A DNA stretch of 64,000 nucleotides from the IMG/VR virus record IMGVR_UViG_3300025401_000012, one strand, 5' to 3'. The notes under the pieces are model-generated. The model did not search any database and was not told the DNA's origin. It saw only the letters and a program-made list of their open reading frames with translations. Positions 22,240 to 39,058 of the stretch are shown here, one piece after another. The DNA is from a virus. Its lineage: Duplodnaviria; Caudoviricetes. The position numbers and the translations under genes were made by a program. Each line of letters starts with the position of its first letter. Positions within the stretch are counted from its first letter, which is position 1.

Positions 22240-22242
22240 ACT

Positions 22243-23163: not shown

Positions 23164-23164
23164 T

Positions 23165-24979
23165 ATGAAAAATTTAAGAAAAGACATCTGGATTGCAGGT
23201 GTTGCAAGAGGACACAATAGCAGTGTATGTTTACTTAAAAACGGAGAAATTGTTTTTAGTATCGAAGAAGAAAGGCTAAGTCGAAGCAAATACGATGGCG
23301 GTCCATTTGCGGCTATGTTAAAGATTTTAGATTATACAGATAGACTAGATTATCTAGTAATTGCACATACACAAACACTAAGAGAAACTGCAGGTAGGGT
23401 AGATTTTAGTGGAGACGATATCTATACAGGTCTTGCTAGAAAGTTAGGGCTTATTAGTCGCAATGAAAATCCATATAATCATCCCCAAGTGTTAGATTAT
23501 AGTATACACCATCATAAATTGCATGCTGCATGTGCGTTTTATCGTTCAGGATTTGACGAAGCTGCAGCACTAATTGTCGACGGTGCTGGAACATTTATTC
23601 CACTTAATGTTTCGGGAGAAACTATTACAGGTTGGGAAACTGAAAGTATTTTTGATTGTTCGTATCCTGCATGGTTTGATACAGTATATAAACATATTGG
23701 TGTCCGAGGACCGATGCCTGGTGCGTATGTCAAAGAATTTGACAGCGCACAGTACGACGAAGTGGGCAGGACACATGAAGCATTTGTTACTGACAGAGCC
23801 GGTATTACTAAAGTGTACGAAGCTGTAACACAATATTGCGGATGGCAGTCGATTGAAGCAGGAAAAACTATGGGATTATTTCCGTATGGAAAACCTAATG
23901 ATGCTATTCCGACATTATTTGATAAAACCAGTATCGCTCCTGTTGCTAATAGAAACATAATAGTTCCTACATATCCTAACGGTGCATCAGTTAACTATAA
24001 TTTGTTTGAGTACTTACAAGATAAAGTAACAGACATGCCAGACGACGACGTAACTCTTAGAGATAATCGTAGAGATTTAGCCTATGCTTGTCAAACACAA
24101 ACACAAGAACAAGTGCTACGGTTAATTAGACTAGCTGTAGAAAAAACAGGTCATAAAAAAGTGGTTATTTCAGGCGGGTATGGATTAAATTGTGTTGCTA
24201 ATTATTACTATTTAGAACAATTAAAAGACGACGGTATTGAAATTTATGTAGAACCAATTAGCAATGATGCTGGAACTGCCATTGGTGCTGCTATATTGGC
24301 ATTTAAACGATATGGATATCCACACATGCCAATTGATTATACCAAGGATGGATTATATTTAGGATTTAAATATGATGTGGATTTTGATAGTCTGAACAGT
24401 ATAGTTCAACAGTACAATGCTGAAATTACAGATGCTACTGATAGCGATATTGTTGATTTATTAATGAATAAAAACATTGTATCCTTATATCAAGGACGTA
24501 GTGAAAACGGTCCTAGAGCGTTGGGAAATCGTAGTATTTTATTTAATCCGACATATGAAGATGGAAAAGACTATGTTAATAATATAAAACATAGAGAATA
24601 TTTCCGTCCATTTGCTGGTAGCATCTTACAAGAACATGTACATGAATGGTTTGATTTACGTGGTATGCAAGATAGTCCTTATATGATGTATGCTGTAAAT
24701 TGCCAACTAGGTATTGAAGAAAAAATTCCTGCTATTATTCACGTAGATGGTACATGTCGTATTCAAACAGTTACTGAAGAACAAAATAAACACTACTATA
24801 GTTTAATTAAAGCATTTTATGATAAAACAGGTATTCCTATTTTGTTCAATACTAGTTTTAACCTAGGTGGTGAACCATTAGTTGAAACTATTAAAGATGC
24901 TATACACACATTATCTAATAGTGAAATTGAATATCTGTATTTGCCAGAATATGGCAAATTGGTCAAAGTAGCTAATTAA
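23165..24979 (+). CDS. Carbamoyltransferase, NodU/CmcH family
   Basis: GHNSSVCL..NG.I...IEEERLSR.K, HH.LHAA.AFY.SGF, VDGAG, GKTMGL.PYG, SGG..LNCVAN, NDAGTAIGAA, GPRALGNRSIL, K.REYFRPFA, HVDGTCR.QTV, NTSFN..GEPLVET. Confidence 0.95.
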   Translation: MKNLRKDIWIAGVARGHNSSVCLLKNGEIVFSIEEERLSRSKYDGGPFAAMLKILDYTDRLDYLVIAHTQTLRETAGRVDFSGDDIYTGLARKLGLISRNENPYNHPQVLDYSIHHHKLHAACAFYRSGFDEAAALIVDGAGTFIPLNVSGETITGWETESIFDCSYPAWFDTVYKHIGVRGPMPGAYVKEFDSAQYDEVGRTHEAFVTDRAGITKVYEAVTQYCGWQSIEAGKTMGLFPYGKPNDAIPTLFDKTSIAPVANRNIIVPTYPNGASVNYNLFEYLQDKVTDMPDDDVTLRDNRRDLAYACQTQTQEQVLRLIRLAVEKTGHKKVVISGGYGLNCVANYYYLEQLKDDGIEIYVEPISNDAGTAIGAAILAFKRYGYPHMPIDYTKDGLYLGFKYDVDFDSLNSIVQQYNAEITDATDSDIVDLLMNKNIVSLYQGRSENGPRALGNRSILFNPTYEDGKDYVNNIKHREYFRPFAGSILQEHVHEWFDLRGMQDSPYMMYAVNCQLGIEEKIPAIIHVDGTCRIQTVTEEQNKHYYSLIKAFYDKTGIPILFNTSFNLGGEPLVETIKDAIHTLSNSEIEYLYLPEYGKLVKVAN

Positions 24980-25006: not shown

Positions 25007-26293
25007 TTAATGCCCTTCTGGCTGTACCATACCAGAATTTGGATTTCTATCTGGTTCTGGTCTGTCATGACCTATTTTTGGTTCATCAGGTCTATCTGGA
25101 TGTATTGGTCCACTAATTTTATGTGATCCAGTAGTAGGCATACTTAAAAACTTAATTCCTTTATTGCCTTCTGTTGGTGTATTTTGTAATGGATCATCTA
25201 ATACTATTTGTTTTTTAGCTGAATCTATTGAAACAACTTCAGTTTTGTGATCGAACAAATCTGTTACTAAATGATCTTGCATATCTAAGCCCATGCCAAC
25301 TTCGATACCAGTTACATTGGTGACTTGAATAACTCTGTGTCCCTCAGTGTTGATAGGAGCAGGTGCTGTTAGATCTAAATCTACCCAAACATTTGATGTT
25401 GCTCCATGTAGTTGCGGCAATAATTTTAAATCTCGTTGATATAATACCCACTGATCCAAAATATCTGCTGGCATACTACTATCATGGTAATATACTTTGG
25501 CAAAATCTCCAATTGATCCGGTTGTAATAGCTACAGCTGGACCTCCTCTGCTAGTGGCCAGTTGGCATGCTGTTGTTGTTGGATTTCCAACAACATAAAA
25601 ATTAACTAGATTTAACGCTTCACCAGTAAGCCCATTAATTGAAATTGTAGTTGTACTATCTGCACCGTCGATCACTACAATAGCATCATCGGGAATTGGA
25701 TCCGGTTCTGCATCAAAATTAAGTGTTGTTGGACTACCATAAACTACATTTACTAGTCTAACAGGATTAGTTCTATGATTAGCATGATCTAGTACACTAT
25801 TTCTCCAGTGTCTTAAATCGTGCCAATCGCTGTGTGGTTGTTGCCATGGGAATGGTTCTACCCAAGTTTGTGTTGTAGGGTTATATTCTACAGCCATTCT
25901 ATTGTAAGCATGGTCTGGAGGCATATTATCATCGTGTGGGCGAGTGTATGTTGTACCGTCTGGTAATGTTTCTGTATGCTGAACTAGTGTTGCATAATCT
26001 ACTTTACCGATCGGGTCAACTAATAATTGTGCAACCAATGGATTAGCTGCGCAATCTAATTTTACTAGATACTCGTCTGGATGTACCGGAAAATCCTCTG
26101 GATCCCATTCGGCAATCATATAATCACCATGGTATGTATTGGTTGCTTTTTTCATACGCAACCATACAAAATCTGGACCATTATATGTCCATGTAGCTGT
26201 TTTACCTAAAACTCCAGTTTGTGCTAGATATTCATCTGGAATTGGGTAAGTAAATGTTACTGAAATTTGTTGTGTTATTCCTGTTTTTGGCAT
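25007..26293 (-). CDS. Tail-fibre assembly chaperone-like protein with inserted domains; paralog of 27843-28535
   Basis: Shares VTFTY..PD.YL.QT..L.KTATWTY.G, LPD.T.Y..P....PDH.Y, PW..PH..W.DL..WR.S.L with 27843; the second chaperone helix WVLYQRDLKLLP is displaced by an insertion. Confidence 0.6.
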   Translation of the reverse strand: MPKTGITQQISVTFTYPIPDEYLAQTGVLGKTATWTYNGPDFVWLRMKKATNTYHGDYMIAEWDPEDFPVHPDEYLVKLDCAANPLVAQLLVDPIGKVDYATLVQHTETLPDGTTYTRPHDDNMPPDHAYNRMAVEYNPTTQTWVEPFPWQQPHSDWHDLRHWRNSVLDHANHRTNPVRLVNVVYGSPTTLNFDAEPDPIPDDAIVVIDGADSTTTISINGLTGEALNLVNFYVVGNPTTTACQLATSRGGPAVAITTGSIGDFAKVYYHDSSMPADILDQWVLYQRDLKLLPQLHGATSNVWVDLDLTAPAPINTEGHRVIQVTNVTGIEVGMGLDMQDHLVTDLFDHKTEVVSIDSAKKQIVLDDPLQNTPTEGNKGIKFLSMPTTGSHKISGPIHPDRPDEPKIGHDRPEPDRNPNSGMVQPEGH

Positions 26294-26299
26294 TTTATT

Positions 26300-27058
26300 T
26301 TATCCGTAAGTTACCGAGACTAAGCCGCCACCGCCGTATTCACCACAGCAACAGTTATTAGCTGATCCAATTCCTGGTCTGCCACCGCCGCCTGGAAAGT
26401 ATGGTCCTGTGCCCCAACTTGTACATCCGCCCCATTGACATCCATGTGGTCCTGTCCATGGTCCTGATACTGTAGCTGGTGCTACTGCTGCAAATCCTTG
26501 AGCTTTTGCTCCACAGAATTGTGTTTGGAGTTCACCGCCACTATAACCTGGCATTGTGATATCGCCTCCGCATGCAGAACTTTGACAACAAATTACATTA
26601 CATCCTGTATAGCATGAAAAATATTGCCAACAAGTACTAATACTTTGGCAACCGCCTTGTGCGCAAAAATTACTTAATCCGTATCCGTTTACAAACGACA
26701 CATATCCTGGACAACCTGTACAATAAGGTGTTGAAAATGTTGTACTACCTGCACAAATTGTATAGCCTTGACCTGCTAATCCACCAGCTGTACCGGCACA
26801 CACTGATTTAACTGAATATGCTCCTGCGCCACCACCACTTCCAGACTGACAGCAACAACTTCCACCGCCGCCGCCGCCTCCACCCCAGATTTCAAATGTA
26901 ACCCATGTTGTACCTGCAGGTGCTGTCCAATAACAGCACTGACCGCCATTTTGACCGCTACAATAACTTCCGTTATAAACTAAAAATTCTGTAGGATAGT
27001 TGGTAGAATATACAGGTTGATTAACTGTAAATGCTATATTTGCTAAACTTGTTGCCAT
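26300..27058 (-). CDS. Cys/Gly-rich adhesin-like protein (paralog 3)
   Basis: WTAPAGTTWVTFEIWGGGGGG glycine-rich-domain motif; ends FPGGGG...GGGLVSVTYG; 24 Cys in 252 aa by manual count. Confidence 0.65.
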   Translation of the reverse strand: MATSLANIAFTVNQPVYSTNYPTEFLVYNGSYCSGQNGGQCCYWTAPAGTTWVTFEIWGGGGGGGGSCCCQSGSGGGAGAYSVKSVCAGTAGGLAGQGYTICAGSTTFSTPYCTGCPGYVSFVNGYGLSNFCAQGGCQSISTCWQYFSCYTGCNVICCQSSACGGDITMPGYSGGELQTQFCGAKAQGFAAVAPATVSGPWTGPHGCQWGGCTSWGTGPYFPGGGGRPGIGSANNCCCGEYGGGGLVSVTYG

Positions 27059-27073
27059 ATTATTCTATTCCGT

Positions 27074-27835
27074 TTATTTGTAAGTTATAATTACTAGGCC
27101 GCCAGCACCAAATGCACCACAATAACAGTTTCCACCGTTTGCAATAGCACTTGCGCCGCCACCGCCTGGGAATGTTGCGTAAGTATTATTCAAACTATTA
27201 TATCCGCTGTTGTTACTACAGCTATCTGTTTGCATACGTAACCCTGTTCCGATATAAGTTGGTTCAGCAACATAACCGTAACCATCCCATGCACAACCTG
27301 CGCCATTATGCATACCACCGTTGACTCCGCACAATGCAAAATCAACGTTACACACACCTGCTTGACAAACAAAACTTAAACAGTTACACCAGTTACCATA
27401 TGTTCCGCAACCAGTACATCCACCACCGCCGCCGCCTGCGCAGATATTTATTGCGTATGTTGAACCGCCTTGTACAAACGAAGTGTATCCACCAGCGCCG
27501 TTATTACAACATCCCCAACAACCAGAACTGGCTGCACACACTGTATACGATTCGCCTGGAACTACACGAGTTGTTTTTCTTCCGTAGGATCCGCTGGCGC
27601 CACTTTGCATTGGGCTCATGCAACAACAAGATGCGGCACCAGTGCCGCCACCGCCCCACATTTCAAATCTTACCCAACTCGCGTTAGCTGGAACTGTCCA
27701 CAAACAACATTGGCCGCCGTTGCTTACACTATTGATGCTTGTATTATAAACATAAATTGTATTTAAATAGTTGGTAGTACTGGCGTTAATAGTCCAACGA
27801 CTATCAGGAAAAAGCGACGATAATGAAGTTGCCAT
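27074..27835 (-). CDS. Cys/Gly-rich adhesin-like protein (paralog 2)
   Basis: WTVPANASWVRFEMWGGGG; ends FPGGGG...GAGGLVIITYK; 21 Cys in 253 aa. Confidence 0.65.
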   Translation of the reverse strand: MATSLSSLFPDSRWTINASTTNYLNTIYVYNTSINSVSNGGQCCLWTVPANASWVRFEMWGGGGTGAASCCCMSPMQSGASGSYGRKTTRVVPGESYTVCAASSGCWGCCNNGAGGYTSFVQGGSTYAINICAGGGGGGCTGCGTYGNWCNCLSFVCQAGVCNVDFALCGVNGGMHNGAGCAWDGYGYVAEPTYIGTGLRMQTDSCSNNSGYNSLNNTYATFPGGGGASAIANGGNCYCGAFGAGGLVIITYK

Positions 27836-27842
27836 TTAAATA

Positions 27843-28535
27843 TTACCCTTCTCTTGAATGGATTTTTGGATCTTGACCTAATGTCCACTTTCTTGGAGGC
27901 GATCCAGGCATTACTGGAAAACTAACTTTCCAAGGATCAACACCTTTAAATGTTTCTGGAAGATCACGTAATTTTTGACGATATTCTTCCCATGCCGCAC
28001 GATCTTGTGGCGCACATGTTCTAACGTTCATGTCTGAACTTGCTAGAGTACTATCACGCCATTTTTTCAAATCATCCCAAGTAACATGCGGTTTTTTCCA
28101 TGGAAGTGGTTTGACAAAATCTTGTGCAACTGGATCCCATGTAATTTCTGTTAATTCATATGTATGATCTGGAGGAGTTGGATCTGGATGACCATACCAA
28201 GTATTATCTGGTAATGCTTCTTCAGTATGTGGTAATTCACCATATACATAATCACTGTGTACCATGCTAGCTATCAACGGATTAACATTGGCATCGATGA
28301 ATATCTTGTACATATTTTCAGGAGTAGGTACATCTTCACCGTTATCACCTTCGTGGTGATGAAATTTACTTATGATCTTTCCTGTTGCCTTATCAGCATA
28401 TATCCATAATTTATCGTAACCACGATAAGTCCATGTAGCTGTTTTTTTCAAATTATTTGTTTGATACAAATACGCATCAGGAAGATCGTATGTAAACGTA
28501 ACTTCTATCATATTTAACTCTGGTGGATTTTCCAT
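27843..28535 (-). CDS. Tail-fibre assembly chaperone-like protein
   Basis: C-terminal KKWRDSTLASSD...AAWEEYRQKLRDLP...PW.V.FP fits the phage tail assembly chaperone pattern. Confidence 0.7.
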   Translation of the reverse strand: MENPPELNMIEVTFTYDLPDAYLYQTNNLKKTATWTYRGYDKLWIYADKATGKIISKFHHHEGDNGEDVPTPENMYKIFIDANVNPLIASMVHSDYVYGELPHTEEALPDNTWYGHPDPTPPDHTYELTEITWDPVAQDFVKPLPWKKPHVTWDDLKKWRDSTLASSDMNVRTCAPQDRAAWEEYRQKLRDLPETFKGVDPWKVSFPVMPGSPPRKWTLGQDPKIHSREG

Positions 28536-28547
28536 TTTTAACCTCTT

Positions 28548-29318
28548 TTAACCGTATGTAATAACTATTAGACCTGCACCGCCCCATTGACCCCAACAGC
28601 AGCCGCCAGCACATGCTTGACCTGAACTACCAGGACCGCCTGGAAATCCAATTTGTTGTTGTGCGTAATAGTAGCAACCTGCTACAGTCATTGGTTGAGC
28701 GCAACTACTACTTCCAAACATCGAGTTTGGTTGATATTTTAAACTTCCACTTTTCCATGGATAGTGTTCTTGCGTACAGAAATTGTTTTCATGATCGCCG
28801 TTGTTTTGAATATAACCCATGCATAAGTCGCCGCATAAATTACAGCAACACATAATTCCGCCACAACAGTTTCCGTAACAACTTTGGCCGCCCATGTGTC
28901 CACAATAAGTACAGCCGCCTGCGCCGCCTGCGCCGCAAGCCACAACTGTACCAGCACTATTGGTTACAAAACTAGGGAATCCGCAACCTGCATTGAAACA
29001 TTGACTACAACAACCGCTACCTGCAGCACAAATATTGTAGTAAGGACATATATTAGTAGAAACTGTTTTTTTAACGTATTGTCCTGAACCTGGAGCTTGT
29101 ACAGGGCCTTCACAACAACACGACCCAGCACCATCTCCGCCAGCACCCCACACTTCAAACTGAACATATTGTGTACCAGTTGGGCAAATCCAGCAACAAC
29201 AGCATCCGCCAGACTGAGTACCGACTCCAAAATACCCACCACAGACCATCTGTTGTCTAATTTTGTAGTAGGTTTTTGCGCCAGATATTAAATTTAAATT
29301 TACGAGTGATGTTGCCAT
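28548..29318 (-). CDS. Cys/Gly-rich adhesin-like protein (paralog 1)
   Basis: WICPTGTQYVQFEVWGAGG; ends FPGGPG...GGAGLIVITYG; 32 Cys in 256 aa. Confidence 0.65.
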   Translation of the reverse strand: MATSLVNLNLISGAKTYYKIRQQMVCGGYFGVGTQSGGCCCCWICPTGTQYVQFEVWGAGGDGAGSCCCEGPVQAPGSGQYVKKTVSTNICPYYNICAAGSGCCSQCFNAGCGFPSFVTNSAGTVVACGAGGAGGCTYCGHMGGQSCYGNCCGGIMCCCNLCGDLCMGYIQNNGDHENNFCTQEHYPWKSGSLKYQPNSMFGSSSCAQPMTVAGCYYYAQQQIGFPGGPGSSGQACAGGCCWGQWGGAGLIVITYG

Positions 29319-29327
29319 ATTTTACTC

Positions 29328-29657
29328 TTAGTGTCCGCCTAATAACCAACCGTATGCTGAGCTATAAATTAGTGTTACAGCACAATAGTTAATGTTTAAT
29401 GTTAAACTGGTATTAGCATTAGCAATGTTAGCTGCACCGTTCTGTGCTATTGTAACGTTAGATGCAGCAAATGCACCTGTAGCATCAATAATTTGCACAG
29501 TATCTCCGTCTAATGCTGCTGCTGTAGGAGGTAAAGTTAAAGTCATACCGCCTGCAGTACAAATTACACGATCATTTGTTAGCATAGTGTAGTTAGTACC
29601 AGCGTTATAACGTATTACCGATTGTGCTGTTCCTGTTGTTGTGATATATCGTCCCAT
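29328..29657 (-). CDS. Small fibre connector-like structural protein
   Basis: TLTLPP.....GDTVQIIDA.G.F...NVTI..NG......L.LN.....VTLIY.....GW motif typical of T4-like fibre/baseplate linker domains; GATAAATA at 29678-29685. Confidence 0.6.
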   Translation of the reverse strand: MGRYITTTGTAQSVIRYNAGTNYTMLTNDRVICTAGGMTLTLPPTAAALDGDTVQIIDATGAFAASNVTIAQNGAANIANANTSLTLNINYCAVTLIYSSAYGWLLGGH

Positions 29658-29692
29658 GTTGAATTCCTCTAGTAATTTATTTATCTTAATAG

Positions 29693-30019
29693 TTACGTTG
29701 TTGAAGTCTCAATTCCGTAGGCTACAAAACTAACTCCAACTGCACTAGATCTAACTAGGATGGAATTACCTGGATTTATAACCAATCCTGTACGTTCTAA
29801 TACCCCGTGTGATAGAATTTCTGTTTCATATTCGATAAATTCGTTATTTCCAATCGTTGTGGTAGAAGTACTAATTCCTATACGAACTGATATTGCATTG
29901 TTACTTCTGTTGCACACTGATACTGTAGCCATTGTAAAAAACCCAGCTGGTGCTGTATACAATAATGTATCTGTTGCAGCTGCTGGAATGTCTAATACTC
30001 CAAATCGTCCTGTTGCCAT
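29693..30019 (-). CDS. Small beta-sandwich fibre-associated protein, tandem paralog of 30038
   Basis: MATGR.G..DI.....DTLLYT.P.G.F....V...NR....VR.G...EFIEYE..ILS.HGVLERTG.V...G.S...RSS..GV..VAYGIET.T. Confidence 0.65.
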   Translation of the reverse strand: MATGRFGVLDIPAAATDTLLYTAPAGFFTMATVSVCNRSNNAISVRIGISTSTTTIGNNEFIEYETEILSHGVLERTGLVINPGNSILVRSSAVGVSFVAYGIETSTT

Positions 30020-30037
30020 GTTTAAATCTCCGTTATT

Positions 30038-30364
30038 TTATGATGTTGCTGTTTCTATGCCATATGCCACAGCATTAACACCAAGTAGGCTACTTCTAAA
30101 TAGCACAGATTGGCCAGCTTGTAGGACAATACCAGTTCTTTCTAGCACACCATGCGCTGACAATATAACTTCATATTCAATAAATTCGGCTGCAGCAATT
30201 GAACTAGTTGCGGCACATGCTCCTAGACGTACTGTACACTCTGTATTTGTTCTGTTAACTAATGTTACAGATACTACTGCAAAATTGCCTGGCGGGCAAG
30301 TATACAATAACGTATCTACGTTGATTGTTCCAATATCTACCGCCCCTAATCGTCCTGTTGCCAT
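30038..30364 (-). CDS. Small beta-sandwich fibre-associated protein, tandem paralog of 29693
   Basis: Same 108-aa length and motif pattern as 29693-30019. Confidence 0.65.
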   Translation of the reverse strand: MATGRLGAVDIGTINVDTLLYTCPPGNFAVVSVTLVNRTNTECTVRLGACAATSSIAAAEFIEYEVILSAHGVLERTGIVLQAGQSVLFRSSLLGVNAVAYGIETATS

Positions 30365-30376
30365 TTTAAATCCTCG

Positions 30377-33300
30377 TTAATTTAGTAAGAAGTTTACAGC
30401 TAATGGGCTTCCATCTACCCCTGCTATAAAATACATCTTGTTTGCCACTTTAATCTGCACTTGGGTAGTAGTACTAATACTATTTCCTGCTATGTAAATT
30501 GAGCCAGCCGTTAGTGTATTTACATTCAATGAACTACCACCGCCACCAATTTGGCTACTAATATAAGATTTAATAGCTTTTTGTGTTGGTAAAATATTGT
30601 CACTATTTGCTGTAAAATACGGATCTGTTGAAAAACTAGTAATTGTAGCACTGTTATTGCCTAAACTTACTGATCCAATAGTTAAACTATTCAAACCAGC
30701 TACGTTGAACGCACTAGCATTTAGAGTAGCAGTACCAGTTGCTTGCTGTACGCTGAATAAATTACCAACGTTAAAATTGCCGTCTTGGTCTGTACTTGTA
30801 AAGAATACACGACCACCATTATTGCTAACTGTTTGATAGTTACCGTTAGCCACTAATAACGGAGTTCCTGGATAGTTGGTATTAGTAAAATTACCAGTAC
30901 CAATACTTAAAAAGTCATGTCCTGTCAAACGCACTTGACTATACTTAATTCTTAATGTAATTGCTGTGCCATTGGCTGGTGCATTAGTTGTAGTTAAACT
31001 TGGATTAATTTGGAATTGTGCGGTATACGGATATAATCCGCCACCAGTTCCAATTAAGTTAGTTACTTGCACCAGTTTGTAAATAGTACTATTTCCATTA
31101 AAAATTATATTTGATCCTGCTACCGGTGTTGTATATATTCCAGCTACGTTAATGTAAGTACCTGGTTGATATATATCTGCAATTCCGTTAGTTACTACAG
31201 TTGCACTGGCTGTAGCGTATGCTAAACCTCTATTAGTAAATGTTGGATTTGCAATAGCGCCTGTTCCAGTTCTAACACTCCAGGTTGCACTAGTTGTTTG
31301 ATTTGGATCAATAATTGTTACAGCAGGTGTGCTTGCATATCCACTACCTGGTTCAATCATCTTAAATGATGTCACTGCTCCACCGGCAACTGTCACACGA
31401 GCTTGTGCTGTACAACCTGTTGTAATTAAATTATATCCTGTTGTACCGTATGTCAGTACTACCCAATATGGAACACTGTTTGGATTTCCAAATGCTACAA
31501 CGCCTGCAGATGCTGTAGTACTTAATGTTCTTGAAGTCCAGTAAATACCGTCTTCACTAGTAGCACAAGTAGTTGAGCCAGCATCGGTATTGGTTGCCAT
31601 GAACAATCCTTGCGCATATCTTACCTTATTCCATGTTTGGGTGCTCGGTAATCCAAGACCGGCATACCATGTAATACCATCAAAACTATAAGCTGTAGCA
31701 CTTGTATTAGCCGCAATTGCAACAAATTTATTCTTACCAAATGCTACACTAGTCCAGTTTTGACTGCTTGGCAATCCGTTGCTAGCTAACCAACCAACTG
31801 TTGGATTTGTACTGTAAGCAGATGTAGTTCCGCCTGATGCTATAGCTACCCAGGTAGCACCACCAAATGCAATACTTGTCCAGTTGGCTGTTTGTGGCAA
31901 TGCTGCTCCAGTTGTCCAGCTAGATCCGCCATTTGTACTAATAATTACGCTAGATCCGCCGTATTGAATAGCTATAAACTGGCTAGATCCGCCATATGCT
32001 ATGGCACTCCAGTTAGTAGTTAAGCCTAACGTGCCCGATGCGGTCCAAGTAACACCGCCATTTGTACTAATAGCTCCTGTGTTTGAACCGTTAGCAACTG
32101 CAACCCATGTACCAACTGATCCATTTGCACCGTATGCAACAGCTGACCAAGTTGAACTTGCTGGCAATGCGCCACCTGCGTTCCATCCAGAACCAGTGGT
32201 GCTATACATTGTTGATGTTCCAGCATTAGCAATAGCAACAAAGTTACCGCCTGCACCTTGTCCACTGTAGGTAAAGTTATTGATGATTCCACCAACAGTA
32301 TTAGTTACTGTGATTGTAATATTATTAGTCGGTGTGGTTCCGCCTAAATTTGCACCTGCAATAGTTAAAGTATTACCAATTGCGTAACCAATACCGCCGG
32401 TTGCTAATGTTACTGAATATGCAATACCAGTTCTAGTGATATTAAATTGTGCACCGGTTCCTGAGCCGCCTGTAACACCAATACTTGAATATGTTCCGTT
32501 AATATCTCCGTATGCGCAATCTATCCATGTTCCAGATGTCTGAGTACCCAATACACTAGTGAATCCTGGACTTGTAAATGTAACTCTTGGCTCGATAATA
32601 TAATTTGTAGTAACATCCAAATTAGCCAACAATGGCCATCCTGTAACTACATGATCCCATCCTGCTGGATACCATGTAATCGATTGACTTGTTGTAGTTG
32701 TTACAGCTAGTCCAGCTGTAGCATTCGAAGATGAAGCTGCACTAAACACGGAATTAGTAAACGTAGTCATACCAACTGCTGTTGTTGCAGTTGTTGTAAC
32801 ACCAACAGCATAGTATAGTGTGGCTGTATTTAAATTAGTTCCTGTAGTAGCACTTAGATAAAATGGCATACCATTATACATGCCTGCTGTGCTAGAAACT
32901 GTTATAGTATTTTGTGTACCCGTAATAGTAGCACTCGCTCTTGTTTGATTTGCGCTTACAATATAGTTTGCTGTAGCTGTAGGTGTTCCTGTAGCAGCTT
33001 GATTCAAACTATAAGTTCCTAATCCGCCTGGAATATAAAAACTAGTTGTACCAGATACGGCACCAACTAATGGCTGACTTAGTGTAACTGTTAATGCATT
33101 AAAATTAATAGCTGTTACAAATGTGTTAGCTGGAAGTCCAGATATTGGAGTAATAAACATTGCAGGAGCAATTGTTCCAATAGATCCAACAGTAAATGAA
33201 CTCAATGTAAGTGTACTTTGCCCACTTGTGCCTGTTATTGTACAAGTTGCTTGCGCGGTAGATCCTGTAGCATTAATTTGTCCAGTAATATAAGTGTAAT

Positions 33301-36300
33301 TAGTTACGCTACCACCACTTAGTAATCCACCTGTCATAAGATTACTTGCACTTACTGTTGCTGACAACAATGTGCTTGAAATATTAGTTACAGTACCTGC
33401 TGTAGGTGTTGTACCGCCTGTTACAGTATATGTAATACTAGTTTGGCTAACAATGCTTGTAACAACTACACTAGTTGGGCTACCACCATAAAGAGTACCT
33501 GTACCAGATGTTGCTGTTAAAGGCATACCAACAACGCAACTGCTAGTTGAGCTCATACCTGTAATAGTTGCTGTCCAAGGACCTGCACCAGTAATAGAAC
33601 CGATTGTACCTGTTGTACTTACTACGCTACTTGCCAAACTTGATGTGCCAATTGCACCAGTTGAAGTTGCAGAAATGTATGTACCAGCTGTAATTGTACC
33701 TGAGCTAGTTAAGAACATGCCAGGAGCAAATGCAGAACCAGTAACTGCGCTAATTGGAACAAACACAGCAGGTATATTTGTAATTCCAACAGCTATAATT
33801 ACACCAGTTGCACTAGATGTTGCTGTAGTTGTTGCTGAAATAGGCAATGTAGGAATAGTTTCTTTTGCAATTTGAGCAATTTTACTACCGTTATTATAGT
33901 TAGTGATATAACCAGTTTGTCCGCCGCCGGTACCGCCGATTAATACAATTCTTTCACCTACATATACTCCACTAATGTTTGTGTCAGTTGCAGCAATCGT
34001 AATTTGATATAATGTACCAGCTTGGCCTACGTTACTGATAATAACATAGTTTGCACCGCCAGTTAGATAACGTGTTTCAAATACCGCATTATCACGGAAT
34101 TCATTACCAACTGTTGCCACATTATAACCGCCACTACTTGCAATATTAAATGTTGCTGTATTTGCTGTCTGTCCAGCATTAGTAAATTCTAATCTCCAAA
34201 CTCTATTTACTGCATCGGTTAATACGTTTGCAATAATTGGATATGTATAACGATTGTTAACGGTTGCTGTTACAGGGGTTTCTGTTAGATCGTATCCTTC
34301 TGCAACAACTCCATAACTACCATATGAGCTGTTACCGTTAGTAGCACGAATTTTTGCACCAGCTTCTGCAAGATAACCAATTTGGTTATAGTACGAGAAC
34401 ACAGACACACACTCTGTTAACGCATTAGTTCCATATGCCCACACTCCGATACCGTCACTTAGAACTTGGGTAAAATCATTACAAACTATACTTCTATTAC
34501 CGCCATTGTGTAATGTTCCATCAATTTTTAATCCAACACACCCGGTTCCGAATGTTGTCACGTTTTGTACGTAAGGAGATTTTCTAAAAATCCAAACGCT
34601 TGTATCTTGGGGGCCAACTCCTGGATCTAAACTAGTATAAGCGCCGGCTGTTGGTCGACTTGTACCATAGTTGCTACTATAAGTTGTTCCGCTTAAACTA
34701 GCACCAGTAAATGCAATATAAGTACCAGCTATAGCATTATTATAAGTTGTAGATAACGTTAATGTTGTTGTAGTTAATACACTACCAATATAATAAGTTC
34801 CAGCTGTAAGTCCGCCACCGCCTGTTCCTGCTACAATAAATTGATTTCCGGTTGCCATACCTGTAGTACTTCCTACAGTTATAGTTCCGCCTGTATTTGT
34901 TGTACCATATGTGGCCACTGTAGTAGCAGTAATTGATCCAGTACTAATTGCTACTGGAGTACCAACACTTCCAGTCAATCCGTATAACGTCATATTTCTA
35001 ACACCAGAACCATTTCTGCAATAGAACATGTTTCCAGTTAAATATCCTGCTGTTAAACTTGTACTTGAAATACTCAAAGAACTAGCAGCACTTAATAATG
35101 CATCTGATCCAGTATTATAAATTGTATAAGTTCCAGCTTTACCTGCATAAAAGAAATATGCAGTAGTAGTATTTCCAGTGAAACTTGTAGTTAGTTCGTT
35201 ACTTAATGTAACAGTAGTACCATTGACAGCTGTAACAAATGTATTAGTAGGTATTCCTGAAATAGTTGCACCATTACCAGATACAAACATACCAACTACA
35301 ACAGATGCATTAGCTGAACTTAATGTAATATTGTACGATCCGCTAGTACCATTGAATGTTTGGCTTGTTGCTGATGATCCTGATGCTCCTGTTAATTGAG
35401 CTGTAATTTGTACAGGGCTTAATATAGCAGAGTTTCCAGTCAAATACATTCCTACAATGATGTTACCAGTTGCTGTAAATGTAGTACTTGTGGGATTACT
35501 ACTTGTTAATGTTATATATGTACCAGCTAGCGCATTTGTATAACTAGTTGCTAGTGTTAATGTTGTAGCCGATAATACTTGTCCAACAAAATATGTTCCT
35601 GCACTAATACCGCCACCGCCTGCGCCAGTAATAACAAATTGATGTCCAGTTAATAGCCCAGTGGTATTTGCTACTGTAAGATAACCGCCTGTTCCTGTTG
35701 ATCCATAAGTGCTAATACTAGTACTTGTAATACTAATATTAGATAAAATATTGGTCATAGCCGACACTGTTAATGTTCCAGCGGAAGTCGAACCAGTAAA
35801 TGGTGCTGTAGTTGAAAGTGGTTGAACAATTACGCCACGCAATTCGTCTCCAACTAATGCTACGTTTTCTGGAACACTAATTGGTAGTACTTCATTGTAA
35901 GTTCCGTTCTTAATAAAGATAGTACTAGTAACTCCGGCATTTGCAGAAGGAATGCTTGCTGTACTTACATTAGTTAGTGCTGTTGTTATAATACTGATTA
36001 AACTAGTAATATTTGCACTTGCTCCAGCTTCTGCAACGTAATTAGTATCAATAGTTTGATTAATTACAGAACCTGCAATAGATCCACCGCTTGAATATGT
36101 TGCTGTAGTTAAACTTGCAACAGTCACACTAGAAGTTGACAAACTAATAACTTTGAATGATCCGTTGAAACCGCTTGGAGATACTCCGCTAATTGTAATA
36201 GTTTCGCCGATTACAAATGGACTATTAGTTTGAGTTGCAAATGTAAATGTAACTAATCCGTTCAATCCAGATGCACCTGTGATAGTCAAAGATGTAACAG

Positions 36301-39058
36301 CTCCGCTACCTCCAGTTGTGTTTTGATAGATAGTACCAGGTGCTGTATTTGCAATAACATTAGTAGTTAACAAGTTTGATAATTTGTTTAGAGCAGCAAT
36401 ATAAAATGCTGCTTGTGAAGCTACGTTAGTTGTAATAAATGTCGACGTAGATCCTTGTTGAAAAAATGCCAATGCAGCTGCTACAGTTTGACTGTTGCCG
36501 CCTCTTACTAAATCGTAGATTACAGCGTCAACAATATATCCTGCATCTCGTTGTGTTTTATACTGATCATAACTTGATGAAGGGCTGAATGGAGATATGC
36601 TGTTTGTTTTTTCATAAATCATCCAGTTATACATTTCGGCTATAGCCCAATTTTTATTTTGAGTTAACAAATAGCTAGTGTTAGGATAGTAAGTTCCATT
36701 TAACACTTGTTGACACGCATATTTTATAGTTTTCCAAGGACGATCTAATGTTTGACCGTAATTAGGTGCAGGGCTATCTACACCATTAGTGTTACTAACA
36801 TAGTACACATCACTAATTAAACCAAAATATCCCCAAGATGGAAGACCTCCGGCGCTTACTTTTAAGACTTGCCCAACTGAACCAATTCCTAAACGGGTAG
36901 CACCTGTTGGACCATAGTATGCAATATCTCCCGAAGTAGTTAAAATACTTGTACTTGCACCCGCGGCAATTAAATTCCAATAAGTTCCTGTTAAATCATT
37001 TGGTGGACTGTTTAAAGAAGATGCAGTATGTGCTAAAATACAAACATAACTATTTGGTCCATAAACTGTAATATCACCTGCAACATATGCTGTACTAGTT
37101 ATCCAAGTAGATGAGTATCCAATGAATGAATATGTTGTAATTGCACCGCCAGTAACCGTACCAACTGTAATTGTAATATCATTAAATGGTGATATACCTC
37201 CTACAGATGTTCCTAATATTTTAATAATATCGCCTGCGGTATAGTTAGTACCGTTAGCTGTTTTGTTTAAACTGTATACAGTTCCAGTTGATGTTACTGT
37301 AAACTGTGCGCCTGCTGCTGATCCGTTTGTTACTGTAACATTAGTTGTACTAAGACCTGTATAAGTTGCACCTGGAGCATTGAATCTAACCCCAGTATTT
37401 AAACGACTCCAATATGTTGTATTAGGCGGTTGATTGCCCGAGCTTGGAGTGTGATCTAAAATACATACATATGTATATGCACCGTTACGGACAACATTAC
37501 CTACTCGATATCCAGTCTGGCCTGTTTGTAATCCTGTTGGACTAGTGGTCCAATCGCCTAACAATGTCCAACCGGTAGTGTACAAGAACCAATTATTTGC
37601 TGCCACAGTTCCAAACCCGGTAGCTGCAGACAGCGGGCCATTAGGAATAGTATAAGATACTTGTGTTGTAGTAGGAGTACCAGTTACAACCCATGTTCCG
37701 TTATAGCTAGATGGAACCACGTTAGCTACTGTAATTGTTTGGTTAGCCGTAAACGGAACTGAACCTTGTGTGGCATAAGTTAAAGTTACTGTGTTACCAA
37801 CTGTGCTTGCAGCCGTGATAGTAATTGTATTAGGTGAACTTACATCAGTAGTTGGAACTACTCCTGAATTTTGACTTGCTGCAATATAACTAAAACCGCC
37901 GTAGGTAACCAAATCGCCATTTTGGTATGTTGTGCTACTATTCCAGGTATTGAAATAAGTTAATCCTTCTACAAATTTACTCCAATTAGTTTCGACAAAT
38001 GTGCTATAACTAGTATGTGGAGTTGTACAAATATAAGTATCCGCACCATAAAGTACTATATCGTTAGCTTTATATCTAACACTACTTGAGCTCCATAAAC
38101 CTAAGTAGTTAAAACCTTTGTGTAAATAATCCCAATAACTTTGATTTGCTTCTAGACCGCTAGTGGCTGAGCTAGCACTAGTATGTGCGGTGTTACATAC
38201 GTATAAATATCCGCCGTATCTTACTACATCATTGACTCGATATGCAGTCGAAGTTAACCAATCTACAGTCCAAGTAAACCCATCAGCAAAAACAGTCCAC
38301 TTACTTTGATCGTTTTCTAAACCTTTAGTACCGTTTGCTGATATTGTTCCTGTTGTTCCTGTATAACTTCCACCCAAAGCATACGTTACGTAAGTAGTTG
38401 TACAAGCTAGTACAGTAAATGTTCCATTAAATTGAGTTGTTGAAAAATTACTAACTGTAAGAGTAGTTCCTGCTGAATACGGCGCAATAGATTGTGTTGA
38501 TGCAAATGTTAATGTAGCAGTCCCGCCTGTTGCTGTTGCAGACGATACAGAAAGTGTCGTAGTTGACGCACTACTTTGATGTCCTGTATTACATATATAA
38601 GTTTCGCCGCCATATTTTACTACATCGTTTGCTTTATATCTATAAAGACTTGCCCAATTACCTAACCAGTTGAAACTAGTAGCATATACGGTCCAGTTAG
38701 ATAAATTTGCTTCGAGACCGGCACTAGTATCTGGACTTTGTCCAGAATTCGCAGAATTGCTACTTGTATGTGCAGTGTTACAAATATATACAATTCCACC
38801 ATATTTTACAATATCGTTTACATTGTAGTATGTATTAATAGTCCAGTTACCAGTCCAAGTTGAACCATCTGAAACCTGATTCCACTTAGTAGGTATTGCT
38901 GATAAATCAGTAACAAAATTAGCCGATGCCGTATGAGCAATAGTGCAAACATAGGTTTTACCACTATTTCTTACTATGTCGTCTTTTACATAAGATGTTC
39001 CTGTAGTCCATGTGCCTTGCCATACGAAGCGCAATCTACCAAGTTTAAATTCTGCCAT
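30377..39058 (-). CDS. Giant tail-fibre/appendage protein (2893 aa): CBM5/12-like repeats, beta-helix-like core, propeller-like repeats
   Basis: 8 W-x6-Y-x3-D-x-V-x-Y-x-G-x2-Y-x-C-x3-H repeats; VPENVALVGDELRG and KSPYVQNVTTFG core; W.A(V/I)A(Y/F)G...(F/W)VA repeats; SQVRLTGHDFLSIGTG C-terminal domain; CATAAATA at 39079-39086. Confidence 0.75.
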   Translation of the reverse strand: MAEFKLGRLRFVWQGTWTTGTSYVKDDIVRNSGKTYVCTIAHTASANFVTDLSAIPTKWNQVSDGSTWTGNWTINTYYNVNDIVKYGGIVYICNTAHTSSNSANSGQSPDTSAGLEANLSNWTVYATSFNWLGNWASLYRYKANDVVKYGGETYICNTGHQSSASTTTLSVSSATATGGTATLTFASTQSIAPYSAGTTLTVSNFSTTQFNGTFTVLACTTTYVTYALGGSYTGTTGTISANGTKGLENDQSKWTVFADGFTWTVDWLTSTAYRVNDVVRYGGYLYVCNTAHTSASSATSGLEANQSYWDYLHKGFNYLGLWSSSSVRYKANDIVLYGADTYICTTPHTSYSTFVETNWSKFVEGLTYFNTWNSSTTYQNGDLVTYGGFSYIAASQNSGVVPTTDVSSPNTITITAASTVGNTVTLTYATQGSVPFTANQTITVANVVPSSYNGTWVVTGTPTTTQVSYTIPNGPLSAATGFGTVAANNWFLYTTGWTLLGDWTTSPTGLQTGQTGYRVGNVVRNGAYTYVCILDHTPSSGNQPPNTTYWSRLNTGVRFNAPGATYTGLSTTNVTVTNGSAAGAQFTVTSTGTVYSLNKTANGTNYTAGDIIKILGTSVGGISPFNDITITVGTVTGGAITTYSFIGYSSTWITSTAYVAGDITVYGPNSYVCILAHTASSLNSPPNDLTGTYWNLIAAGASTSILTTSGDIAYYGPTGATRLGIGSVGQVLKVSAGGLPSWGYFGLISDVYYVSNTNGVDSPAPNYGQTLDRPWKTIKYACQQVLNGTYYPNTSYLLTQNKNWAIAEMYNWMIYEKTNSISPFSPSSSYDQYKTQRDAGYIVDAVIYDLVRGGNSQTVAAALAFFQQGSTSTFITTNVASQAAFYIAALNKLSNLLTTNVIANTAPGTIYQNTTGGSGAVTSLTITGASGLNGLVTFTFATQTNSPFVIGETITISGVSPSGFNGSFKVISLSTSSVTVASLTTATYSSGGSIAGSVINQTIDTNYVAEAGASANITSLISIITTALTNVSTASIPSANAGVTSTIFIKNGTYNEVLPISVPENVALVGDELRGVIVQPLSTTAPFTGSTSAGTLTVSAMTNILSNISITSTSISTYGSTGTGGYLTVANTTGLLTGHQFVITGAGGGGISAGTYFVGQVLSATTLTLATSYTNALAGTYITLTSSNPTSTTFTATGNIIVGMYLTGNSAILSPVQITAQLTGASGSSATSQTFNGTSGSYNITLSSANASVVVGMFVSGNGATISGIPTNTFVTAVNGTTVTLSNELTTSFTGNTTTAYFFYAGKAGTYTIYNTGSDALLSAASSLSISSTSLTAGYLTGNMFYCRNGSGVRNMTLYGLTGSVGTPVAISTGSITATTVATYGTTNTGGTITVGSTTGMATGNQFIVAGTGGGGLTAGTYYIGSVLTTTTLTLSTTYNNAIAGTYIAFTGASLSGTTYSSNYGTSRPTAGAYTSLDPGVGPQDTSVWIFRKSPYVQNVTTFGTGCVGLKIDGTLHNGGNRSIVCNDFTQVLSDGIGVWAYGTNALTECVSVFSYYNQIGYLAEAGAKIRATNGNSSYGSYGVVAEGYDLTETPVTATVNNRYTYPIIANVLTDAVNRVWRLEFTNAGQTANTATFNIASSGGYNVATVGNEFRDNAVFETRYLTGGANYVIISNVGQAGTLYQITIAATDTNISGVYVGERIVLIGGTGGGQTGYITNYNNGSKIAQIAKETIPTLPISATTTATSSATGVIIAVGITNIPAVFVPISAVTGSAFAPGMFLTSSGTITAGTYISATSTGAIGTSSLASSVVSTTGTIGSITGAGPWTATITGMSSTSSCVVGMPLTATSGTGTLYGGSPTSVVVTSIVSQTSITYTVTGGTTPTAGTVTNISSTLLSATVSASNLMTGGLLSGGSVTNYTYITGQINATGSTAQATCTITGTSGQSTLTLSSFTVGSIGTIAPAMFITPISGLPANTFVTAINFNALTVTLSQPLVGAVSGTTSFYIPGGLGTYSLNQAATGTPTATANYIVSANQTRASATITGTQNTITVSSTAGMYNGMPFYLSATTGTNLNTATLYYAVGVTTTATTAVGMTTFTNSVFSAASSSNATAGLAVTTTTSQSITWYPAGWDHVVTGWPLLANLDVTTNYIIEPRVTFTSPGFTSVLGTQTSGTWIDCAYGDINGTYSSIGVTGGSGTGAQFNITRTGIAYSVTLATGGIGYAIGNTLTIAGANLGGTTPTNNITITVTNTVGGIINNFTYSGQGAGGNFVAIANAGTSTMYSTTGSGWNAGGALPASSTWSAVAYGANGSVGTWVAVANGSNTGAISTNGGVTWTASGTLGLTTNWSAIAYGGSSQFIAIQYGGSSVIISTNGGSSWTTGAALPQTANWTSIAFGGATWVAIASGGTTSAYSTNPTVGWLASNGLPSSQNWTSVAFGKNKFVAIAANTSATAYSFDGITWYAGLGLPSTQTWNKVRYAQGLFMATNTDAGSTTCATSEDGIYWTSRTLSTTASAGVVAFGNPNSVPYWVVLTYGTTGYNLITTGCTAQARVTVAGGAVTSFKMIEPGSGYASTPAVTIIDPNQTTSATWSVRTGTGAIANPTFTNRGLAYATASATVVTNGIADIYQPGTYINVAGIYTTPVAGSNIIFNGNSTIYKLVQVTNLIGTGGGLYPYTAQFQINPSLTTTNAPANGTAITLRIKYSQVRLTGHDFLSIGTGNFTNTNYPGTPLLVANGNYQTVSNNGGRVFFTSTDQDGNFNVGNLFSVQQATGTATLNASAFNVAGLNSLTIGSVSLGNNSATITSFSTDPYFTANSDNILPTQKAIKSYISSQIGGGGSSLNVNTLTAGSIYIAGNSISTTTQVQIKVANKMYFIAGVDGSPLAVNFLLN

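Follow-up and report, generated by a model that had tools for sequence, protein, structure and literature searches.

The tail fiber protein gp24 of the cyanophage Pam3 (PDB 7YPX and 7YFW), combines a TNF-like β-sandwich with a glycine-rich lattice, carries GGGGxGG in its first and last loops, and is followed directly by the gene for a Tfa-type chaperone, gp25 (PMC9608196), in a fiber apparatus that is disulfide-linked (PMC9942802). The same two-part fold is found in the TG ligand-binding domain of ALK and LTK (PDB 7LIR, 7NX1, and 7N00), although this is a larger, functionally unrelated animal receptor domain for cytokine ligands, with other loops. The gp38 adhesin on the gp37 tip of T-even and S16-type phages is a small, separately encoded protein whose polyglycine lattice has hypervariable loops at the distal end, and its gene directly follows the distal fiber module, but its middle domain is a β-helix and not TNF-like (PMC9608196), and it is not Cys-rich. 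XD1 domains, such as those of CBA120 TSP4, T4 gp10, and T4 gp9 (PDB 7RFO, 5IV5, and 1QEX; PMC8825819), pack as trimers within branched receptor-binding assemblies, where those of TSP4 and gp10 are regarded as spacers, the partners being bound by XD2 and XD3.

Here, we describe an operon of three Cys-packed, glycine-rich paralogs with an adaptor and two chaperones in a stretch of viral DNA of 64,000 nucleotides (the window). The three paralogs are probably host-recognition tips, and we favor, as a reasonably probable account, that the module represents the distal host-recognition part of the long tail fiber of a T4-like, cyanophage-type phage, with its tips, adaptor, chaperones, and disulfides acting as proposed below. 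The tip fold itself is already known, and the Cys-rich three-paralog form is a variant of it. Compared with Pam3 gp24, with which they have about 21% sequence identity, the tips lack the 67-residue N-terminal helical anchor, contain 8–12% Cys within the domain (Cys28 is the only Cys of gp24 discussed in the Pam3 papers), and are encoded by three paralogous genes instead of one. They would also dock onto a separate XD1 adaptor in a large T4-like phage, in contrast to the docking of gp24 to the baseplate wedge, and disulfides in the tips are putative.

Gene order and composition of the locus

The six genes lie on the minus strand, tightly packed with gaps of 6–15 nt, 3' of a T4-type late-promoter-like motif, GATAAATA (29678..29685, minus strand), which is located 20 nt 5' of the start codon of the first gene. 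They encode, in the order of transcription, the adaptor of 109 aa (29328..29657), tip paralog 1 of 256 aa (28548..29318), chaperone 1 of 230 aa (27843..28535), tip paralog 2 of 253 aa (27074..27835), tip paralog 3 of 252 aa (26300..27058), and chaperone 2 of 428 aa (25007..26293). The ORFs and the single operon with a late motif that had been proposed from the sequence alone were thus confirmed, with coordinates, gaps, and motif all in agreement. The heptamer ATAAATA is rarer than chance within the window (14 observed versus 34.5 expected), and its copies are mostly located directly 5' of minus-strand genes, which is the pattern expected of T4-type late promoters.

Directly 5' of the adaptor gene, two tandem paralogs of 108 aa each (29693..30364, minus strand) match phrog_11338 and phrog_693, both tail fiber families, and resemble the C-terminal parts of tail fiber proteins. 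The pair is kept at this position in relatives, as indicated by synteny at about 60 loci, and no sequence relationship was detected between the 108-aa proteins and the adaptor. The gene directly upstream of this pair encodes a fiber protein of 2893 aa (30377..39058, minus strand; phrog_9851, tail fiber protein, E 1.6e-135), which is a candidate for the shaft that bears the adaptor and the tips.

The tip paralogs contain 32, 21, and 24 Cys residues, respectively, corresponding to 12.5, 8.3, and 9.5% of their sequences, and Gly accounts for 19–23%. The window median is 0.4% Cys, and the next richest of the ORFs with 150 aa or more reaches 1.7%, so that the claimed excess of Cys over the other genes was borne out, with the three counts being exact. 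Adjacent Cys pairs are also more frequent than in shuffled sequences for paralog 1 (10 versus 3.9, p 0.002) and paralog 3 (6 versus 2.2, p 0.01), with 4 versus 1.7 for paralog 2 (p 0.07). All three start with MATSL and are 35–40% identical to one another (36% for paralogs 1 and 2), and their alignment shows common blocks around GG.CC.W, V.FE.WG.GG.G..SCCC, and FPGG.G, with divergent stretches between them. The shared motifs and divergent loops described in the sequence-only reading therefore stand, except that the conserved P and V are separated by five residues and not four.

With regard to family membership, paralogs 1 and 2 match phrog_4205 (at 6.9e-16 and 7e-26, respectively), and paralog 2 matches Pfam PF21722 (Gly_rich_2) with 33.0 bits, above the curated cut-off of 24.3, as do 44 of 80 aligned relatives. 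Paralog 3 reached 15.8 bits for Gly_rich_2, below that cut-off, and paralog 1 was absent among the matches listed. A tblastn search of the phage collection gave only weak, partial matches for paralog 3 and no match for paralog 2, for which the low-complexity filter is the probable reason. In sequence searches of the PDB, the profile of the three paralogs gave no match, and that of 80 sequences matched only RemZ (E 2e-4) and not gp24. Every sampled member of the tip family is unnamed or labeled hypothetical.

Predicted folds of tips, adaptor, and chaperones

For paralog 3, an AlphaFold2 model (pLDDT 86.3, pTM 0.85) was compared with known structures. It matched the Pam3 fiber protein gp24 with a Z of 19.7 (rmsd 2.7 Å over 197 residues), a chain of the Bxb1 tail tip with a Z of 13.7, and the ALK/LTK TG domain with a Z of 8–9.7 over about 145 residues, whereas unrelated rows in the same comparison had a Z of 3.6 or less, and Foldseek matched it to a TNF-like plus glycine-rich fold (E 7e-6). 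The tip fold is thus predicted to be a TNF-like β-sandwich continuous with a polyglycine-II lattice, and the GGGGxGG of the first and last loops is shared with gp24. The model from residue 15 onward aligns with residues 68–275 of gp24, and only a five-residue helix (residues 5–9) precedes the sandwich, with no long N-terminal helical domain of the gp24 type. Structure prediction hence agrees with the proposal of polyglycine receptor-binding tips, a polyglycine-II-type fold being seen in the paralog 3 model, with Pam3 gp24 and the ALK TG domain as the nearest solved structures in place of T-even gp38. None of the three paralogs matched the Pfam family GP38 at E up to 1, and S16 gp38 was absent among the Foldseek and fold matches listed, which does not amount to an exclusion.

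The model of the adaptor (pLDDT 83.9) has an XD1 β-sandwich fold, matching residues 59–177 of CBA120 TSP4 (Z 14.6), T4 gp10 (Z 11.4), and T4 gp9 (Z 11.0), with matches spanning 91–106 residues, and its predicted nine-strand sandwich is the one known from these proteins. Unlike the known XD1 domains, the adaptor is free-standing here or located at a fiber C-terminus, which leaves one face open. Residues 20–105 align to the extreme C-terminus of fiber proteins of 1262–1475 aa in other phages, and such fused adaptor–fiber genes are located directly 5' of a tip gene at five other loci. The connector role previously assigned to the 109-aa gene is thus plausible, and the modeled adaptor is likely a trimeric distal fiber module carrying the tips; its arrangement as a trimer around the fiber axis is suggested by the adaptor-like C-termini of long fiber proteins. 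A complex prediction with three adaptor copies and paralog 3 gave a score of 0.01, which counts neither for nor against binding.

The first 5–7 residues of the tips are common to all three paralogs within a genome and switch jointly between genomes, being MATSL here and MxxLRxLL in most relatives, with N-terminal identity of 0.53 within a genome versus 0.37 for non-orthologous pairs between genomes. The motif classes (LR, TSL, LT, and YK) follow the clades of the adaptor, which are located on long stems. In the TSL class, the adaptor lacks the R and E of VARNG..AEDL and the tips lack their Arg, although this covariation amounts to no more than two or three independent events, and the Glu is also missing from some adaptors of the LR class. 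The concerted change of the tip motif and its tracking of adaptor clades indirectly support docking through the N-terminus. Of the claim that the tips dock through MATSL, the concerted behavior of the motif across the paralogs was supported in this indirect manner, and docking itself is suggested by it.

Chaperone 1 is, by its sequence, a Tfa-type tail fiber assembly chaperone, as had been claimed: its residues 156–210 match Pfam PF16778 (Phage_tail_APC) with 34.1 bits, above the cut-off of 26.6, and it also matches tail fiber assembly phrogs. The Tfa motif occupies its C-terminal 55 residues as in the chaperones of the Mu/lambda type, but its long N-terminal domain (phrog_9740) is particular to this phage group. 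Chaperone 2 (phrog_9740 at 1e-17) gave no Pfam match, but its first 160 aa are 42% identical to chaperone 1 (E 3e-34), which verifies the two as paralogs. Relative to chaperone 1, it contains an additional internal module and is extended at the C-terminus, and it differs from the Mu/lambda type by that extra C-terminal region and by its Tfa motif, which appears from the sequence to be split by the insert.

Conserved cysteines and a fixed three-copy set in relatives

About 70 viral contigs contain the operon, and almost all of them have three tip copies; of 83 loci, 71 have three copies and most others have one, with two in P-SSM2. Isolates having the module are S-CAM1, S-SSM7, S-CAM3, and P-SSM2. 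A virion-detected receptor-binding protein with homologs in S-SSM7 has been reported (2025; PMC12801897) and may or may not belong to the tip family. In the tree, the three tip positions form old, separate orthologous clades, paralog 1 belonging to that of position 1, and the clades are retained jointly in nearly every relative. Paralogs in such fixed orthologous positions are not swappable cassettes, and the interchangeability suggested by the sequence-only reading is thus not supported. The triplets arose or were homogenized separately in three lineages, namely, a group with the order F-Ch-F-F-Ch (F, tip; Ch, chaperone), a group with the order F-F-F-Ch, and S-CAM1. All three tips have one chaperone in common in the F-F-F-Ch group, as do paralogs 2 and 3 in the present operon.

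Across 80 relatives, six positions are Cys in at least 90% of the sequences, and invariant Cys residues are located within otherwise hypervariable loops among the 46–48 orthologues of each paralog, so that the Cys positions are conserved among the homologs of the paralogs. The parity of the Cys count is random, being even in 79 of 166 representatives (p 0.59), which is a weak test if a few Cys are free. Regarding the co-occurrence of Cys pairs, one pair was strong (r 0.67) and the others were at 0.38 or below, and positions 68/69, 143, and 236 showed a loose three-way correlation. A set of strictly paired disulfides would not be expected to show such random parity and weak pairwise co-loss. 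The tip proteins have no signal peptide, which indicates folding in the reducing cytoplasm. Erv1/ALR, DsbA, and VKOR were not found in S-CAM1, S-SSM7 (both complete), and three large contigs, a result weakened by the Erv1 control, which matched nowhere. The only genes of this kind detected were those of ordinary thioredoxins and glutaredoxins. The paralogs matched no Pfam metal-binding family and have no conserved His, each containing 1–3 His residues. In RemZ, a relative without these Cys, the conserved Cys columns are occupied by hydrophobic residues, as expected of buried packing positions.

Arrangement and chemistry of the tips

The three paralogs may, as a tentative alternative to three kinds of tip, constitute one heterotrimeric knob, to which each would contribute one chain at the three-fold adaptor. 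The trimeric state of Pam3 gp24 (PMC9608196), the copy number of three or mostly one, the separate emergence or homogenization of triplets in three lineages, the N-terminal motif changing in concert in all three paralogs, and the sharing of chaperones are in line with this arrangement, but two chaperones for three tips would equally fit a homotrimer plus a mixed pair, P-SSM2 has two copies, and the N-terminal helices, which mainly hold the gp24 trimer together, are missing here. It is rather unlikely that the paralogs are monomers that each cap a trimeric fiber end, as with gp38 of the S16/T2 type on gp37 (an arrangement cited in PMC9608196), with caps differing between the fibers of a virion. 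The small size, the short docking N-terminus, the lack of a trimerization helix, and the gene position directly after the fiber-end module would suit such caps; however, the closest structural kin are gp24 and the Bxb1 tip chain and not gp38, Pfam GP38 gave no match, and the constant number of three would be left unexplained.

Regarding the Cys residues, binding of metal (Zn, Cu, Cd, or Fe-S) as thiolate clusters, with no disulfides, is likewise rather unlikely. Iron-bearing phage tail proteins provide a precedent, the T4 gp37 tip having His-coordinated iron and lambda gpL a 4Fe-4S cluster. The enriched CC, CCC, and CCCC runs, the co-loss and parity patterns with the three-way correlation, and folding in a reducing cytoplasm with no oxidase found encoded in relatives are also consistent with metal binding. 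On the other hand, no metal-binding family was matched, His is not conserved, the hydrophobic residues of RemZ suit buried packing, and the isolated invariant Cys in variable loops resemble disulfide pillars. That the host-recognition tips of abundant aquatic T4-like cyanophages would be metalloproteins, with many metal ions per fiber, is improbable. Soluble Cys-rich proteins acting outside the virion, for example, in metal or redox buffering during infection, are suggested by the odd composition only and are very unlikely in view of the tip fold, the late-promoter operon, the fiber chaperones, the upstream fiber genes, and the conservation across about 70 loci.

Returning to the distal host-recognition module of the long tail fiber, the tips would be located in the virion, where contact with the host receptor would be made by their variable distal loops, and the short N-terminal peptide would dock them onto the XD1 adaptor in place of a gp24-type helical anchor. 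The Tfa-type chaperones may fold and assemble the tips, one acting on paralog 1 and the other on paralogs 2 and 3. The dense Cys would serve as a conserved framework, in which putative disulfides most likely pin the hypervariable loops and crosslink the glycine lattice, arising without a dedicated phage oxidase, probably upon contact with oxygenated water.

To our knowledge, most receptor-binding proteins of T4-like cyanophages from marine and fresh waters are unassigned. The present module offers a widely conserved, concrete fiber-tip candidate, for which a fold is predicted and an adaptor, chaperones, and a short peptide for docking are proposed. Proteins with a TG fold do not usually contain 8–12% Cys, and such a content in a cytoplasmic product poses the question of whether it represents a disulfide net, a metal cluster, or free thiols, and the near-constant presence of three copies poses that of whether there are three types of tip or a single three-part knob. 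If the tips were metalloproteins, this would have a bearing on trace-metal cycling and on the possibility that fibers mimic the metal-loaded ligands of host uptake receptors.

Gene organization and genomic setting

Six minus-strand ORFs, packed with intergenic gaps of just 6-15 nt, encode the adaptor (109 aa; 29328-29657), tip paralog 1 (256 aa; 28548-29318), chaperone 1 (230 aa; 27843-28535), tip paralog 2 (253 aa; 27074-27835), tip paralog 3 (252 aa; 26300-27058), and chaperone 2 (428 aa; 25007-26293). Paralogs 1, 2, and 3 contain 32, 21, and 24 Cys residues (12.5, 8.3, and 9.5%) and 19-23% Gly; among window ORFs of at least 150 aa, the median Cys content was 0.4%, and the richest after the tips reached 1.7%. 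The three tips all begin with MATSL, share a mutual identity of 35-36%, and exhibited CC adjacency above that in shuffled sequences. Thus, the sequence-only reading of a trio of Cys-packed, Gly-rich paralogs in one operon was borne out by the ORFs, gaps, Cys counts, MATSL, and common blocks. All of the shared motif blocks were present in the three tips, although the spacing of one motif had been miscounted by one residue.

The reading of the interleaved proteins as chaperones was also supported. The C-terminal 55 residues of chaperone 1 matched Pfam Phage_tail_APC at 34.1 bits versus a cut-off of 26.6, and chaperone 2 was homologous to chaperone 1 (42% identity across the first 160 residues, E 3e-34). 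A Tfa-type motif near the C-terminus of chaperone 2 is interrupted by an insert of ~95 aa, and the protein terminates in an added Pro/Asp/Glu-rich tail. Because its length differs so much from relative to relative (~215-495 aa), chaperone 2 may have a role beyond that of a chaperone.

GATAAATA was found at 29678-29685, 20 nt 5' of the adaptor start codon. ATAAATA was strongly depleted in the window (14 copies found versus 34.5 expected), and most copies were directly 5' of minus-strand gene starts (e.g., at 1657, 4194, 8765, 21202, 39079, 48658, 53813, and 63308). This placement would suit T4-type late promoters, and, together with the depletion, would suit selection against stray ones. A late-promoter-like ATAAATA core was also present at 27445-27451 on the minus strand, within tip paralog 2 and ~370 nt 5' of paralog 3; it could have arisen by chance or be an internal promoter driving the last two genes.

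Upstream of the module are genes for 2893-aa and 2329-aa proteins, both of a tail-fibre phrog, and for two tandem 108-aa paralogs (29693-30019 and 30038-30364, minus strand), which resemble the C-terminal parts of tail-fibre proteins and are represented by a single copy in most relatives versus two in the window. The 108-aa proteins begin with MATGR, another short conserved N-terminus, and no sequence relation was found between them and the adaptor. On the 3' side, the operon adjoins genes for a GT9-like protein, a protein of unknown function, and a carbamoyltransferase (21286-24979, plus strand). S-CAM1, P-SSM2, and S-SSM7 likewise have a carbamoyltransferase gene after the module, accompanied in S-CAM1 and P-SSM2 by heptose-pathway genes and a cupin with a cysteine dioxygenase annotation. 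Matches in the phage collection, by nucleotide or protein, were only to the Synechococcus/Prochlorococcus myoviruses S-CAM1, S-CAM3, S-SSM7, and P-SSM2, all distant.

Predicted fold and cysteine framework of the candidate fibre tips

All three tips matched phrog_4205, which has no assigned function, and paralog 2 matched Pfam Gly_rich_2 at 33.0 bits versus a cut-off of 24.3, as did 44 of 80 relatives. Searching 1.8 billion representatives with a profile yielded 407 matches, the best 150 of which were all Cys-rich, with 6-12% Cys in the full-length ones; the database members sampled from the family are all unnamed or "hypothetical". Paralog 3, modelled with AlphaFold2 on the basis of 80 relatives (pLDDT 86.3, pTM 0.85), was closest to residues 68-275 of the cyanophage fibre protein Pam3 gp24 (Foldseek E 7e-6, Z 19.7, rmsd 2.7 Å over 197 residues), followed by a mycobacteriophage Bxb1 tail-tip chain (Z 13.7) and the ALK/LTK TNF-like and glycine-rich domain (Z 8-9.7), with unrelated structures starting at Z 3.6. 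In addition, 219 predicted viral structures (BFVD) matched at E ≤0.001, among them proteins of S-CAM3 and P-SSM2 and numerous "glycine-rich domain-containing" proteins. Because of these matches, the predicted tip fold is one already known and widespread among viral adhesins, and the tips are members of Pfam Gly_rich_2 and, as modelled, of the TG fold. The proposal of polyglycine adhesins held as to a glycine-rich fibre-tip fold, as predicted, although the closest solved relative is Pam3 gp24. The tips had no match to Pfam GP38 at E up to 1 and so are not, by sequence, members of the gp38 family.

Structure predictions also place this fold at the ends of giant-virus collagen-like proteins of Edafosvirus, megaviruses, pithoviruses, and Pandoravirus (BFVD). 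The N-terminal 200 residues of RemZ (PDB 8GL8 chain D) also match the family profile (E 2e-4) without the cysteines and, therefore, cellular surface proteins would use the tip fold too.

Cys positions proved to be conserved between paralogs and homologs: among the 80 relatives, six positions were at least 90% Cys (70, 102, 132, 153, 182, and 207 in paralog 3 numbering) and several more were 75-86% Cys. Scaffold blocks were conserved within every group of orthologues (46-48 distinct sequences apiece), and residues ~137-221 were hypervariable, yet with invariant Cys at 181/182 and 206/207. In these alignments, the Cys residues form a framework, with the variable loops set between them. In the first and last loops, CCC triplets separate the two stretches of glycine, would be central in the glycine lattice by analogy with gp24 (PMC9608196), and form short bridges with other Cys-bearing segments in the predicted paralog 3 structure.

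As to the chemistry of these residues, we give about an even chance to most of them forming disulfides after release; disulfide-linked fibres are documented in Pam3 (PMC9942802). A simple disulfide set is countered by the Cys parity, which was random (even in 79 of 166 representatives, p 0.59), and by the weak co-occurrence of variable Cys (one pair at r 0.67, others ≤0.38). Binding of metal in metal-thiolate clusters, which the sequence-only reading had offered beside disulfides, is unlikely, and the rest of the probability falls to free thiols or mixed states. In RemZ, the Cys columns are occupied by hydrophobic residues. No signal peptide was found in the tips. The thiol oxidase that might have accompanied disulfide stapling did not turn up: Erv1, DsbA, and VKOR were not found in S-CAM1, S-SSM7, and three large contigs, a search that is weak for Erv1, whose control matched nowhere, and the redox genes of the relatives were only thioredoxin and glutaredoxin.

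Conservation of the trio, adaptor, and putative docking peptide

A scan of viral contigs gave 79 loci, ~55 of which are arranged as 108-aa gene, adaptor, tip, chaperone, tip, tip, chaperone. In a second group, to which S-SSM7 belongs, the adaptor is fused to the fibre and a single chaperone comes after three tips, and a few loci have just one tip plus one chaperone. With the window and three isolate loci added, the tip copy number was three in 71 of 83 loci and one in 8. A phylogeny of 66 tip proteins placed each of positions 1 and 2 of the main group in a clade of its own and divided position 3 between two well-supported clades, with positions 2 and 3 together making up a single clade (support 98/86); the second-group and S-CAM1 triplets fell in clades apart. 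The tip genes are thus a fixed set of long standing, and the earlier notion of interchangeable, swappable tips was rejected. The three-copy state would reflect either multiple origins or homogenisation within lineages.

The adaptor model (pLDDT 83.9) has the XD1 fold of CBA120 TSP4 residues 59-177 (Z 14.6), T4 gp10 (Z 11.4), and T4 gp9 (Z 11.0), in which XD1 is a trimer packed on the fibre axis within branched receptor-binding complexes (PMC8825819). Since adaptor residues 20-105 align with the C-terminal ~85 residues of fibre proteins of 1262-1475 aa in five other loci, where the fibre genes sit directly 5' of the tip gene, the adaptor is likely the distal end of a fibre, encoded separately in the window. 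The connector role suggested earlier is thus plausible from the predicted fold and this alignment, and the adaptor-then-tip gene order parallels gp37 then gp38. The adaptor N-terminus, MGRYITTTGT, is nearly unchanged across 26 relatives, which suggests that a short N-terminal peptide may also dock the adaptor onto the preceding fibre part.

The first 5-7 tip residues are common to all three paralogs of a genome and switch jointly between genomes. Most genomes have MxxLRxL, the window and four relatives have MATSL, MTTSL, or MATVNL, five genomes have MxxL(T/K), and the second group has MxxYxSYKK. N-terminal identity was 0.53 within a genome versus 0.37 for non-orthologous pairs between genomes. 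In the tree of the otherwise slow-evolving adaptor, the motif classes sorted into long-stemmed clades (0.31, 0.65, and 0.20 changes per site), and in the MATSL-type class the adaptor lacks the Arg and Glu of VARNG..AEDL and the tips lack their Arg. This joint switching indirectly supports the proposed N-terminal docking, probably onto the adaptor, although it represents two to three independent events and has exceptions.

Pam3 gp24 is a trimeric fibre, the glycine-rich end of which is the proposed receptor binder; gp25, the chaperone encoded downstream, assembles this fibre (PMC9608196). Unlike gp24, which has a 67-residue N-terminal helical anchor, the tips have only a five-residue helix before the sandwich, and full equivalence to gp24 is ruled out. 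By analogy, the tips, served by a Tfa chaperone, would act in the manner of gp38-type or gp24-type fibre tips. The fold itself is already known in viruses; the additions, new relative to the searchable literature, are the framework of 8-12% Cys, the fixed set of three tips, the putative docking motif that changes in concert among them, and the XD1 adaptor.
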